A DNA stretch of 60,296 nt from positions 1-60,296 of the forward strand of contig CACKCD010000001.1 in the NCBI GenBank assembly GCA_902598595.1. Reading direction: 5' to 3'. Positions 820 to 5,337 of the stretch are shown one piece after another. The translations under genes and the position numbers were made by a program. The notes beneath the pieces were generated by a model. That model searched no databases and was not told where the DNA came from. It was given only the letters and a program-made list of their open reading frames with translations. Source of the DNA: an uncultured Pelagibacteraceae bacterium. GTDB lineage: Bacteria; Pseudomonadota; Alphaproteobacteria; Pelagibacterales; Pelagibacteraceae. Each line of letters opens with the position of its first letter. Position 1 is the first letter of the stretch.

Positions 820-894
820 GGGCGTGTAGTTCAGTGGTAGAACGCTACGTTGACATCGTAGAGGCCATAAGTTCAATTCTTATCACGCCCACCA
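820..894 (+). tRNA. tRNA-Val(GAC)
   Basis: GGGCGTG/CACGCCC acceptor stem, anticodon arm CTACG-TTGACAT-CGTAG, GTTCAA T-loop, encoded CCA. Confidence 0.97.
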
Positions 895-1760: not shown

Positions 1761-2759
1761 ATGAATGCTAAAGTTACAATTATAGTTCCTGTGTATAATA
1801 CTGCAGACTATCTTCAAAAGTGCATTGATAGTATTAAGAATATAAATTTTGACTCTTATCAAGTAATATTTATTGATAATCATTCTAACGATGGTTCTTA
1901 CGAAATCTTAACAAAAAATTATAATAAAAAATTTAGAATTATTAAAAATAAAAAAAATTACGGCCAGTCTTACTCACTTAATAAAGCAATTAGACTAGCT
2001 AAATCTCCATATATCGCAATTATGGACTCAGATGATATTTGTTTAGAAGACAGAATAATTCAAAGCTACAAATTTCTTAAAAACAATAGAGAGTACGCCT
2101 TAGTTGCCGGTAGGTCGAATATAATTAATGAAAAAGGAAAACTAATTGCAGTGAGGAGATTTACCCATAAACCTGATTTAATTAATTGCAGAATCTTTGT
2201 TGATAACCCTGTTTCACACACAACAATTATGTTTAAAACACAAATAATAAAAAAATTAGGTGGATATTGTCAAAATCTAAAATTTGCCCAAGATTTTGAT
2301 TTGATTTCAAAAATCTTACTTAATAAACATAAAATCAAAATATTAAACAAACAGTTTACTCTTGTAAGAAAACATAAAAAACAACAAAGTTTTAGGAATG
2401 CTAAAAAGCAAGACTTGGAGAGACATAAAATTGTGCTTAAAAATATTAAAAAAAAAATTAAGTTAAATATTCATTTTAGATCATTGATAAAGTTTATTAT
2501 TTTTAAAAAAGATAAAAAATTTGAAAGCCTTTCTTCTCAAACTCAGATTAGAATTTTTAACAATCTTATAAAAAAATTATTTAAAAATGATATGCAAAAA
2601 CTATATTACAGTGCTTTAATCTTTTCTCAAAAAAATAATTTTAAAAAAAGAACTATAATTTCGATACTAATAAAATATCTAATTTTAAATAAACTTTTTG
2701 TAAAAGATAAAGAAACTTTATTAAGGGTAGGTAAATCCTTTTTAAAAATTATTTTTTAA
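1761..2759 (+). CDS. Glycosyltransferase family 2
   Basis: IIVPVYN, IDNHSNDGS, IMDSDD (DxD) and QDFDL motifs. Confidence 0.92.
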   Translation: MNAKVTIIVPVYNTADYLQKCIDSIKNINFDSYQVIFIDNHSNDGSYEILTKNYNKKFRIIKNKKNYGQSYSLNKAIRLAKSPYIAIMDSDDICLEDRIIQSYKFLKNNREYALVAGRSNIINEKGKLIAVRRFTHKPDLINCRIFVDNPVSHTTIMFKTQIIKKLGGYCQNLKFAQDFDLISKILLNKHKIKILNKQFTLVRKHKKQQSFRNAKKQDLERHKIVLKNIKKKIKLNIHFRSLIKFIIFKKDKKFESLSSQTQIRIFNNLIKKLFKNDMQKLYYSALIFSQKNNFKKRTIISILIKYLILNKLFVKDKETLLRVGKSFLKIIF

Positions 2760-3011
2760 TAATTCTTCTAGGTCCAGTAAAGAAAATTTGTTTTCCTGAC
2801 GAGAAAAGATTTTATTCATAAGATCGAGATCCTTTTTAGATTCTTTAAAAATATTTTTGTCCAATTTCGTCAAGAAATTTACTATTGCCAAAGAGTCAAG
2901 CGCACTTCCCTCACCAAGTAAAATGAAGTCATTTTTTTTGTATATTTCAAATTGATTTTGAGAATTATTGAACTCGTCTATTGAAATATTTATAATCTTT
3001 TTTATGTCCAT
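2742..3011 (-). CDS. Stand-alone acyl carrier protein-like protein
   Basis: 89 aa; LLGEGSALDSLAIVNFL carries the DSL phosphopantetheine-attachment serine motif. Confidence 0.75.
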   Translation of the reverse strand: MDIKKIINISIDEFNNSQNQFEIYKKNDFILLGEGSALDSLAIVNFLTKLDKNIFKESKKDLDLMNKIFSRQENKFSLLDLEELLKNNF

Positions 3012-4085
3012 TTAATCTAAATAAAAAATGTTATCACCATCTGTTAGAGATAAATCTAAATTTTCACTGTTTTCAAAAAGCTCAAAATTAAGCTGAGAAT
3101 TAGTGCTTTTTACCAAAAAATTAAAATTTTTACTTTTCTTTTTTATAAATCCTAATTTTTCAAATTCTATTCTCTTGTTTTTTTTATAACCTATTACGTC
3201 GATAACATCAAAATTAAATTTTTTTGCAAAATCCATACAATATTTCAAAGTATCATTAAGAATATAATTTTCTTTATCTGAAATAACAATTTCAACTATA
3301 GATAATTTTTTAAAATTGTATTTTTTTTCTATGCTACTAACCATCGCTATAAATCCGATAAAATTTTGGTCTTTATAAATTTTAATGACATAAAATTTTT
3401 TCTTTTCAATATATTGATTATACTTCCATTTTAACCATTCTAATTTTTTTGAAGACCTTAAATTATTAAAATTTTTTAATTCTTTTGCCAGTTGAATAAA
3501 ATCATTATCAAAATTTTCTTTTAAATGAAAAGAAATGTTGTTTTTTTTTATCTTCTCTTCTTTAATAGGTTGAAAAATATCTCTGTCAAAAGAATTCTTT
3601 TCTTTAACAATTAAACCCTTAATAAAATTGAAAAAAAATCTTGGTTTATTTACAATAAATAAAAGTCTTTTTTGGTAATCTTGCTGTGAAATTTTTTTTG
3701 CTTTAAAGGCTTCCATTATTTTTTCAGACTCAATATTTGCTGAATTAGTTATAAATAAATCAATACCTTTTTGATTTAAAAATAAATGTCTTAGTTTAAG
3801 TGAAAACGATCTATAGTTTTTATCGATTACATAATTATTACAAATTGCAGCTAAAAACTCTTTATTTTTTAATTCAAAAATAAAAGGAATGTTTAAACAA
3901 GCTCCAACAATTTTCTTTTTATCTAATAGTTTCCAACCAATAATCCATTCATTTGTTTGATTAAAGTATGGATTTTTATTCCATAGATTAATCCAATCAT
4001 GTTTATTTAAAGTAATTAAATTATTTCTATTGTTAAGTTCTGATATTTTTTCAAAATCTTCAAATAAAACTTTTTCTATTTCCAT
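3012..4085 (-). CDS. GNAT-fold acyltransferase-like protein (probably tandem GNAT)
   Basis: NYVIDKNYRSFSLKL resembles GNAT motif A; WLKWKY and FEKLGF are typical of tandem GNAT proteins; stop codon abuts the ACP start. Confidence 0.6.
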   Translation of the reverse strand: MEIEKVLFEDFEKISELNNRNNLITLNKHDWINLWNKNPYFNQTNEWIIGWKLLDKKKIVGACLNIPFIFELKNKEFLAAICNNYVIDKNYRSFSLKLRHLFLNQKGIDLFITNSANIESEKIMEAFKAKKISQQDYQKRLLFIVNKPRFFFNFIKGLIVKEKNSFDRDIFQPIKEEKIKKNNISFHLKENFDNDFIQLAKELKNFNNLRSSKKLEWLKWKYNQYIEKKKFYVIKIYKDQNFIGFIAMVSSIEKKYNFKKLSIVEIVISDKENYILNDTLKYCMDFAKKFNFDVIDVIGYKKNKRIEFEKLGFIKKKSKNFNFLVKSTNSQLNFELFENSENLDLSLTDGDNIFYLD

Positions 4086-4131
4086 AAATAAATATAATAT
4101 ACTTTTATATCAAATAACTATAGATAACATT

Positions 4132-5145
4132 ATGACTTATTCTATTGAAAAATTAGTTTATCATTTAAGAGGACTTTATTCAGCTCCAATTATATGCGAA
4201 CTTTCAAAAAGAAAAATTTTTAAATTTATAAAGAATAAAGCAATATTTGATAAAAAAAAATTAATAAACATTAAGAGCAAAAAAGAACTTGAAGCTTGCT
4301 TAAGTTATTTAGTAAGAATTAATTTGCTTAAAAAATTAGATAATGACGAATTAGAATTTACCGATATGGGAGTCGAGATATTTAAAAGAGCAAATTCTTA
4401 CTATGTACCTCATTCATATAGAGATTATATTTTAAATTTAGGAAATATATTTAATAGCAAAATGAATGTTAAAAAACTAAAGGTTGATAGAAATGAGAAT
4501 ATTATTGGTAGCGGCTTAACTCATATGCGATATTTTCCTCCAGTGATTTCATATCTATCTCAAAATAATTCTTTTCACGCAGGTATAGATGTTGGTTGTG
4601 GTAATGGACATTTTTTAAATTTGCTTAACGATAATTTTCAAAGTCTTGATTTATATGGATTTGATGTCTCTAATACATCTGTGAAATCAGCAAAATTAAT
4701 TAAAAAAAAGAATCGTAATAATATTAAAATTTTTAGAGCAGACGCGTCAAAAATAAATTATTGGAAAAAGAAAATTAATATAAAAGGGAAAAAAACTATT
4801 TTCTTTTTTTGGTTTTTACTTCATGAAATAAGTAAAAATAAAAAATCAATTATTATTGATTATTTAAAAAGTATTAAAAAAAACTTCCCAAATTCCACAA
4901 TTGTTATTTGTGAATTAACAAAACAGAGTGATATTATACTCCAGGAAAACTGCGAAAAAAGTTTAATGCCCGAATACTTACTTTTTCATGATTTCTCTGG
5001 TCAAGGAGTTTTAGGTTTTTCCGATTATAAAGAAATATTAAAAAAAACAGGTTATACCCTTAAAAAAGAATGGATGTTTGACCAGAGCCCACCAAATAAA
5101 GATATAAATTCTGAACCTTCTACATTTGTATGGGTTTTAGAATAA
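4132..5145 (+). CDS. Class I SAM-dependent methyltransferase, AprA-MT1-like (putative metal-dependent C-methyltransferase)
   Basis: ATG at 4132 preferred over the overlapping TTG at 4030; DVGCGNG SAM motif; VDRNENIIGSGLTHMRYF, FLLHE and HDFSGQ motifs. Confidence 0.8.
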   Translation: MTYSIEKLVYHLRGLYSAPIICELSKRKIFKFIKNKAIFDKKKLINIKSKKELEACLSYLVRINLLKKLDNDELEFTDMGVEIFKRANSYYVPHSYRDYILNLGNIFNSKMNVKKLKVDRNENIIGSGLTHMRYFPPVISYLSQNNSFHAGIDVGCGNGHFLNLLNDNFQSLDLYGFDVSNTSVKSAKLIKKKNRNNIKIFRADASKINYWKKKINIKGKKTIFFFWFLLHEISKNKKSIIIDYLKSIKKNFPNSTIVICELTKQSDIILQENCEKSLMPEYLLFHDFSGQGVLGFSDYKEILKKTGYTLKKEWMFDQSPPNKDINSEPSTFVWVLE

Positions 5146-5217: not shown

Positions 5218-5337
5218 TGGCCTGGTAATTATTGCGAAGGGGCCACACCCGATCCCATTCCGAACTCGGAAGTTAAGTCCTTCAGCGCCGATGGTACTTT
5301 GTCTTAAGACACGGGAGAGTAGGACGTTGCCAGGCTA
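5218..5337 (+). rRNA. rrf: 5S rRNA, unlinked from 16S-23S
   Basis: TGGCCTGG/CCAGGCTA terminal helix; CCCGATCCCATTCCGAACTCGGAAGTTAAG, GATGGTACT and GGGAGAGTAGG conserved blocks. Confidence 0.97.

Follow-up and report, generated by a model that had tools for sequence, protein, structure and literature searches.

The window analysed here is a stretch of 60,296 nucleotides from an uncultured Pelagibacteraceae bacterium (assembly GCA_902598595.1, contig CACKCD010000001.1, positions 1 to 60,296, forward strand), and the element of interest is a rare four-gene cassette close to its left end. The cassette encodes a stand-alone methyltransferase (MT), a tandem GNAT protein, a small protein resembling an acyl carrier protein (ACP) and a DUF2334 deacetylase, often accompanied by a GT2 glycosyltransferase. 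It is tentatively read, with slightly less than even confidence, as an acyl-swap unit comparable to NodA/NodB. The MT, GNAT and ACP-like genes are not neighbours by chance: the ligand residues are conserved, an Asp-Ser pair is invariant and all three genes stand together in 13 of 49 GNAT loci. The preliminary description of this DNA had presented the trio as a dissected polyketide-type loading module. Its observations stood, and so did an AprA-type methyltransferase; the loading module did not, and the deacetylase that travels with the trio, which is the fourth core gene of the cassette, had been overlooked.

Co-occurrence of the cassette genes

The GNAT loci comprise the window, L001, 39 of 40 metagenome loci and 8 genome regions, L062 being dropped as a 43-residue fragment. 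An ACP-family gene was identified within 5 kb in 38 of these 49 loci (abutting in 35), the MT in 14 and all three genes in 13. Eleven loci have no ACP match; in four of them the sequence stops no more than 150 bp from the GNAT gene and three carry another carrier type. A further 12 SAR11 loci, some of them near-identical, contain the trio with a spacer of 45-46 bp. The MT-bearing loci fall in one 19-row GNAT clade, which includes four evaluable MT-less loci, and the close GNAT loci where the MT is missing are L027, L028, L038 and L039. The minimal unit is found in L032, where only MT, GNAT, ACP and DUF2334 lie between the core genes typA and tal; L001 and L033 contain this unit plus GT2, a frequent and not constant element that is missing from L032. 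In the remaining GNAT clades the genes present are a TylF-like O-methyltransferase, FkbH together with an O-methyltransferase and a MaoC protein, an adenylation enzyme, or else AsnB. In distant lineages the GNAT-ACP pair is found with FkbH, or an adenylation enzyme or AsnB amidotransferase is found with other ACP types.

The 22 MT loci obtained from genomes, most of them among nonulosonic-acid genes, contain an ACP-family gene in 12, KASIII in 9, FkbH in 7, a CitE-type lyase in 5 and this GNAT in one. Both GNAT-ACP and MT-ACP thus recur as pairs, and they are combined in the trio as one of several arrangements. The chassis is GNAT with ACP; the MT is optional, one of several swappable tailoring genes. 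Among 400 genomes of the family besides the source genome (G000), the MT (E <= 1e-20) was identified in 4, this GNAT in 5 and the two together in one; DUF2334 was identified in 74, a count that includes the unpublished G068. Five genomes carrying other MT contexts yielded no member of the GNAT family, and no MT relatives were found in the phage and plasmid collections searched. The MT tree (FastTree, built without AprA or MrsA rows) and the GNAT tree, a quick one, neither root nor date their families.

The methyltransferase

The MT (4132-5145, plus strand, 337 aa) is, as judged from its sequence and model, a stand-alone metal- and S-adenosylmethionine (SAM)-dependent C-methyltransferase of the AprA MT1/SxtA MT type, with catalysis predicted. 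Profile searches and VIA structural alignment of the model agree with the family placement first proposed. The profile of 66 MT relatives matched SxtA at 6e-23, AprA at 1.5e-22 and MrsA at 4e-20, and the profiles of 32 and 66 relatives both put AprA MT1/SxtA MT first by a small margin. The best structural match is SxtA MT 7ucl (Z 25.4, root mean square deviation (rmsd) 3.6, 319 of 337 residues aligned), against Z 20.0, rmsd 3.9 and 318 residues for AprA 6b3b and Z 22.5, rmsd 2.7 and 231 residues for MrsA. The model has a class I methyltransferase fold with an AprA-type helical lid. Among Pfam models, Methyltransf_36 matches and WH_AprA reaches 26.9 bits against a cut-off of 27.

The motifs VDRNENIIGSGLTHMRYF, FLLHE (His231 codon at 4822) and HDFSGQ (4987-5004) were all located as described. 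His286 and Gln291 occur in all 66 relatives, His231 in 64 of 66. The first two align to the His and Gln of the AprA segment YHAFSMQ; His231 aligns to the His of LHE in MrsA, at a point where the AprA alignment is gapped. The His/His/Gln set had been taken as a mark of AprA. The residues are indeed present and conserved, but MrsA has the same H-x4-Q spacing, so the set marks the whole metal-dependent clade and is not diagnostic of the AprA type.

The lid is more telling of the two branches. Residues R86, S95, Y96, R120, N123, S127 and G128 each occur in 63 or more of the 66 relatives and all seven are identical in the AprA and SxtA alignments, with R86 and S95 unmatched in MrsA; in sequence terms they point to the acyl-ACP branch. 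V92 corresponds to Ile204 of SxtA (Thr in AprA) and F285 to Phe458 (Tyr in AprA), SxtA numbers being those in the title of 7ucl. SxtA mono-methylates malonyl-ACP and an Ile-to-Thr change permits a second methylation (PMC10784701). From V92 and F285 at these positions, a single methyl addition is predicted for the MT.

Malonyl-ACP as the substrate is suggested by the shared lid residues, by the ACP adjacent in 12 of 22 genome loci and, weakly, by a complex prediction. For the MT dimer with Mn, SAM and ACP the ipSAE was 0.40 (runs of 0.02, 0.51 and 0.40), against 0.02 for the best of three controls, with partner pLDDT of 80-83. The ipSAE mark used is attained by 116 of 157 solved pairs and by 2 of 215 mismatched ones, both of the latter with scores in the range of 0.40. 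C-methylation of malonyl-ACP has been described as uncommon, and its metal-dependent type is known from polyketide synthase (PKS) domains such as AprA MT1 (PMC13749307).

An unlikely alternative, the best surviving of those considered, is that the MT, working in the manner of MrsA, MppJ or SgvM, takes a free alpha-keto acid or CoA ester as its substrate, being a mere neighbour of the GNAT-ACP pair. The TIGR04543 model (MrsA 2-ketoarginine methyltransferase) matches at full length (E 1.8e-17), MrsA has the equivalent His and H-x4-Q pattern, the five CitE-type MT loci contain a hydratase and no ACP, and the MT is missing in the four close GNAT loci named above. Membership in TIGR04543 was rejected, the score of 63.4 bits lying far under the curated cut-off of 425. 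The lid residues and the whole-length fold go with AprA/SxtA, the nearest MT relatives outside the cassette (L002 and L003) directly adjoin the same ACP family, and the complex prediction, weak as it is, leans the same way.

The MT contains one winged-helix lid unit. The first 80 positions of the profile match AprA and SxtA twice and the window MT once, so far as sequence goes the AprA/SxtA lids look like a duplication of this single unit. As AprA and SxtA have two units where the MT has one, the MT is probably a homodimer. Its classification as a PKS loading-module domain with a duplicated lid was discarded, given its own start and stop, its 337 aa and its single lid unit. Natural fusions were also observed: a single GNAT, FeeM-like in P0122, is joined to the MT family in P0122 and P0127, and ICMT-type membrane methyltransferase domains are fused to more distant relatives (P0171, P0176, P0183 and others).

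The carrier-like protein

The small open reading frame (ORF) lies at 2742-3011 on the minus strand and encodes 89 aa with the LDSL motif (Ser40 codon 2894-2892). Single-sequence searches of Pfam, NCBIfam and PDB gave nothing for it. G33, D39 and S40 do not vary among the 32 relatives aligned, and the family profile matched 2lki, an ACP structure, at E 6e-4, followed by the weak matches ACP 2l4b (E 0.28) and DltC (E 0.53). The first ACP profile had been seeded with 12 of these small ORFs, and only the remaining matches are independent. Members of the family adjoin FkbH and KASIII genes in lineages that range from Omnitrophota to Planctomycetota. It is very probable, on the basis of motif, context and weak profile matches, that this protein is a divergent ACP, with Ser40 as the predicted phosphopantetheine site.

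The tandem GNAT

The GNAT gene (3012-4085, minus strand, 357 aa) abuts the small ORF, its stop and the ATG of the latter being separated by zero gap. Pfam, NCBIfam and PDB sequence searches returned nothing and the family is unnamed. The model (pLDDT 84) has two GNAT domains and NMT as its top Foldseek match; VIA alignment gave Z 19.8 (rmsd 3.4, 282 aligned) with the tandem GNAT 7q3a, Z 19.0 with NMT 8fbt and Z 17.5 with glucosamine N-acetyltransferase 5kf1. The modelled fold is tandem and NMT/Eis/MshD-like, resembling glucosamine N-acetyltransferases too. A Gly-Asp located 2-8 residues from the C-terminus is invariant, and no invariant or near-invariant His occurs in 23 close or 20 wider relatives.

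The GNAT decarboxylases of the CurA/GphF type are single domains of an MT-GNAT-ACP polypeptide and have a conserved catalytic His with Thr/Ser. With two domains in place of one and that His absent, the window GNAT was rejected as a member of this type. The CurA and GphF GNATs are absent among the Foldseek and VIA matches listed, which does not amount to their exclusion. The tandem fold, the lack of an invariant His and the pairing with ACP, usually without MT, make the GNAT look like an exit acyltransferase, and on its model it is likely an acyl-ACP-dependent one, with activity predicted.

These are the same features on which the dissected loading module fails. In its strict form, quite improbable here, the GNAT would decarboxylate methylmalonyl-ACP to propionyl-ACP and perhaps then transfer propionyl to the glycan. 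The three fold classes do match the AprA/GphF/SxtA loading modules, the cassette has no separate decarboxylase, and the CurA and GphF GNATs decarboxylate malonyl-ACP (PMC10127204). The window GNAT is nevertheless a tandem protein whose listed matches are N-acyltransferases, and its family also pairs with FkbH (glyceryl-ACP), where there is nothing to decarboxylate. In the MT-less loci, decarboxylation followed by transfer would merely restore the acetyl group removed by the deacetylase, so transfer of an intact dicarboxylic acyl group is favoured.

The deacetylase

The DUF2334/CE4-type carbohydrate deacetylase is encoded at 905-1663 on the minus strand (PF10096, E 9e-43, 146.7 bits against a cut-off of 26; PF01522, E 3e-7). 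Its translation has RIDD and HGYSH intact, presumably the metal motifs of these enzymes. A CE4-type deacetylase lies within 5 kb in 11 of the 14 MT-bearing loci and in 26 of the 49 GNAT loci, and CE4 deacetylases flank the GNAT in two distant genomes. Seen from the other side, 15 of 28 DUF2334 loci have a GNAT-type gene within 1.5 kb, 11 identified by Pfam or hidden Markov model and four by a 62-column HHalign match; the 28 are those counted of 30 fetched, the own locus and G068 being left out.

The order of reaction is not given by gene order. It is improbable, to much the same degree as the strict loading module, that the GNAT acylates a nucleotide- or lipid-linked sugar with a temporary tag or O-acyl group that DUF2334 removes later, or that the acceptor is a membrane lipid. 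A temporary tag would follow the logic of ArnA/ArnC/ArnD. DUF2334 weakly matches the N-acetylglucosamine (GlcNAc)-phosphatidylglycerol deacetylase model NF053788 (E 1e-9, far under cut-off) and a GT2 gene adjoins, but the swapping of MT, FkbH, adenylation and amidotransferase partners better fits a displayed variable group than a discarded one.

Genomic setting

The cassette region spans from tRNA-Val(GAC) (820-894, plus strand), its left neighbour, to the 5S rRNA (5221-5335, plus strand), the latter being the boundary that delimits the SAR11 hypervariable island HVR2 (PMC3448164). An epimerase fragment is a further gene on the left, and core genes together with the 5S rRNA flank the right side. 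GT2 (1761-2759, plus strand; PF00535, E 2.5e-29) is convergent with the ACP gene. The nearest relatives among named genomes are Pelagibacteraceae. No ketosynthase is in view at the locus, on a contig that begins within the island and belongs to an assembly 65.6% complete, and the surface-glycan setting described earlier is supported. KASIII, FkbH and CitE gave no match in the source genome, which argues against chain extension, although the island is incomplete.

The GNAT and ACP-like genes are divergent from the MT over a spacer of 46 bp (4086-4131, no strand) between the GNAT and MT starts, an arrangement now confirmed. In the alignment of 14 loci the spacer measures 45-46 bp and its ATATACTT core is conserved, and it persists in L027 and L028, where the MT sequence is gone. 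By sequence it is a likely two-way promoter; a consensus promoter scan gave 31 sites against 31.8 expected, none in the spacer. Chance proximity or decaying cargo at the edge of an island, with no pathway in common, is a very improbable account of these genes: HVR2 holds many glycosyltransferases and methyltransferases that are unrelated (PMC3448164) and members are lost in some loci, but the ORFs are intact, order and spacer are conserved across GNATs down to 48% identity, and the cassette has been inserted as a unit at different core sites.

Other contexts of the gene families

In L002-L009, L011 and L021 (e.g. L004 9406-17793) the MT and ACP families occur with KASIII, SDR, MaoC-SDR, O-methyltransferase and FkbH genes, in pseudaminic/legionaminic acid loci of Pelagibacteraceae, Omnitrophota, Planctomycetota and Desulfonema. 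This is likely a small polyketide-like line that would make an N-acyl group with a methyl branch. In L011 (10926-14411) the MT and KASIII genes are separated by B12-binding, URO-D-like and homocysteine S-methyltransferase genes. A second canonical ACP, an AAC(3)-like acyltransferase and DUF4910 genes are present in L009 (16020-20093), presumably resembling the Campylobacter dimethylglyceroyl-pseudaminate locus. In L008 (9641-13801) ACP-MT-KASIII leads into another kind of GNAT (Acetyltransf_9) and a 275-aa gene without annotation, and the same logic may have been assembled here independently. The MT is found without ACP in L012 (2199-5280), L013, L015, L019 and L022, beside a RipB/Ich-like hydratase, a CitE/RipC-like C-C lyase and a NeuD-like acyltransferase, a context that suggests CoA-based acyl building.

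An AsnB-type amidotransferase stands beside GNAT, ACP and DUF2334 in L075 (7359-11436, genome G029) and beside the MT in L006 and L014; by analogy it could make malonamyl-ACP. An SxtJ-like membrane protein and a carbamoyltransferase adjoin the cassette in L029 (4450-6767) and L030 (2186-4550), in the latter between GNAT and ACP. Small modules of DUF2334 and tandem GNAT were identified between core pnp and fabI-like genes in L094-L096, L105, L107, L109, L119 and L122; at this site, in several Pelagibacteraceae, one GNAT group keeps the GYG loop and the other is without it.

Proposed mechanism

In the proposed acyl-swap unit, housekeeping AcpS and FabD would prime the carrier and load it with malonyl. 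FabD is present in the source genome; AcpS was not found in that 65.6% complete assembly and was found in three of four relatives. No FabH over the Pfam cut-off was identified in the 5 Pelagibacteraceae genomes searched (G000, G003, G004, G022 and G208), which likewise speaks against chain extension. The KASIII genes of this study lie in accessory loci. The MT would then methylate malonyl-ACP by metal- and SAM-dependent C-methylation, a probable step for which fold, ligands and lid residues are observed, and one methyl only, as Val92 and Phe285 suggest, would give methylmalonyl-ACP. The GNAT, paired with its carrier, would transfer the acyl group rather than decarboxylate it, a step considered quite probable. 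The acceptor would be an amino sugar of a surface glycan from which DUF2334 has removed the N-acetyl group, a step that co-occurrence makes only somewhat more probable than its contrary. GT2 may build or use this sugar. As the MT is swappable for other tailoring genes, strains would differ in the acyl group displayed.

Several observations weigh against this mechanism. Single-sequence searches (phmmer) and Foldseek E-values put the free-keto-acid enzymes MrsA/MppJ first. Pfam PP-binding (PF00550) does not match the window ACP and matches one of 32 relatives, at E 0.025. The GNAT lacks the GxG of the CoA loop (0 of 20), yet this is also missing in a related group without adjacent ACP, which weakens it as an argument for ACP use, and NMT uses CoA without a GxG loop. 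Ten of the 22 genome MT loci have no ACP-family gene, five of these with the CitE-type lyase, so the MT family is not bound to ACPs. No deacetylase lies within 5 kb in 23 of the 49 GNAT loci, many of them on short contigs. DUF2334 is a widespread gene, with 74 of 400 genomes of the family against 5 for the GNAT, and its co-occurrence may therefore partly reflect a shared island-edge position. The loci counted are related and not independent, several being near-duplicates.

A wider proposal is held to be rather doubtful. It sees a cross-phylum acyl-swap family of CE4 deacetylase, ACP-dependent tandem GNAT, divergent ACP and interchangeable loaders and tailors, in which the AprA-type MT would be the un-duplicated, free-living form of PKS loading methyltransferases and N-methylmalonyl would be placed on the SAR11 surface.

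The building of N-acyl groups on ACP for sugars is known already. In the literature searched, most subscription journals lying outside it, neither a stand-alone AprA-type MT nor this cassette was found described for glycan loci, and searches on DUF2334 with deacetylase, on AprA ligands and on AprA with GNAT found no paper. If the mechanism is true, a small stand-alone MT that has a carrier of its own would make malonyl-ACP C-methylation easy to study and use and would help to trace the origin of PKS loading methyltransferases, and functions would be gained for three unnamed families (tandem GNAT, divergent ACP and DUF2334). The chemistry of the HVR2 glycans of SAR11 has hardly been described; from the cassette a specific decoration with modular variation is predicted, which would bear on phage recognition.

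Comparison with known systems

The window MT shares fold, SAM motif and lid residues with AprA MT1, SxtA MT and GphF MT, as well as the His-x4-Gln ligand pair of AprA. It differs in being a stand-alone protein of 337 aa with a single winged-helix unit in a glycan island, and the GNAT beside it is not of the decarboxylase type. With MrsA, MppJ and SgvM it shares size, stand-alone architecture and the two-His metal site (H244/H296 in SgvM, PMC10502145), but identity is 17-20%, the lid follows AprA and an ACP adjoins. The GNAT has the two-domain fold of the tandem NMT/Eis/MshD/GlmA proteins (Z 15-20) and their conserved C-terminal tail, whereas identity is 7-16%, no family model matches it and it is paired with ACP.

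The logic of the cassette is that of rhizobial NodA/NodB/NodC, with a CE4 deacetylase, an ACP-using N-acyltransferase, a GT2 and its own carrier; NodA moves acyl from ACP to NodB-deacetylated glucosamine (PMC5080398). No match to the NodA or NodB families was found among the window proteins in Pfam and NCBIfam, GT2 is closer to EpsE than to NodC (TIGR04242, 25 bits against a cut-off of 550), and the window has a tandem GNAT, the acyl group predicted for it being short and dicarboxylic. A dedicated ACP builds the N-acyl group of a surface amino sugar also in the viosamine island of P. syringae (acp, vioS, vioR, vioB) and in wfpC-G of F. psychrophilum (PMC3927599, PMC6519341). Those systems use a ketosynthase, a reductase and acyltransferases of other kinds, acting on a 4-amino nucleotide sugar, whereas the window has a C-methyltransferase, a tandem GNAT, a deacetylase and no ketosynthase. 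By analogy, the cassette would work like NodA/NodB and like the ACP-based N-acyl sugar pathways, being a member of neither.

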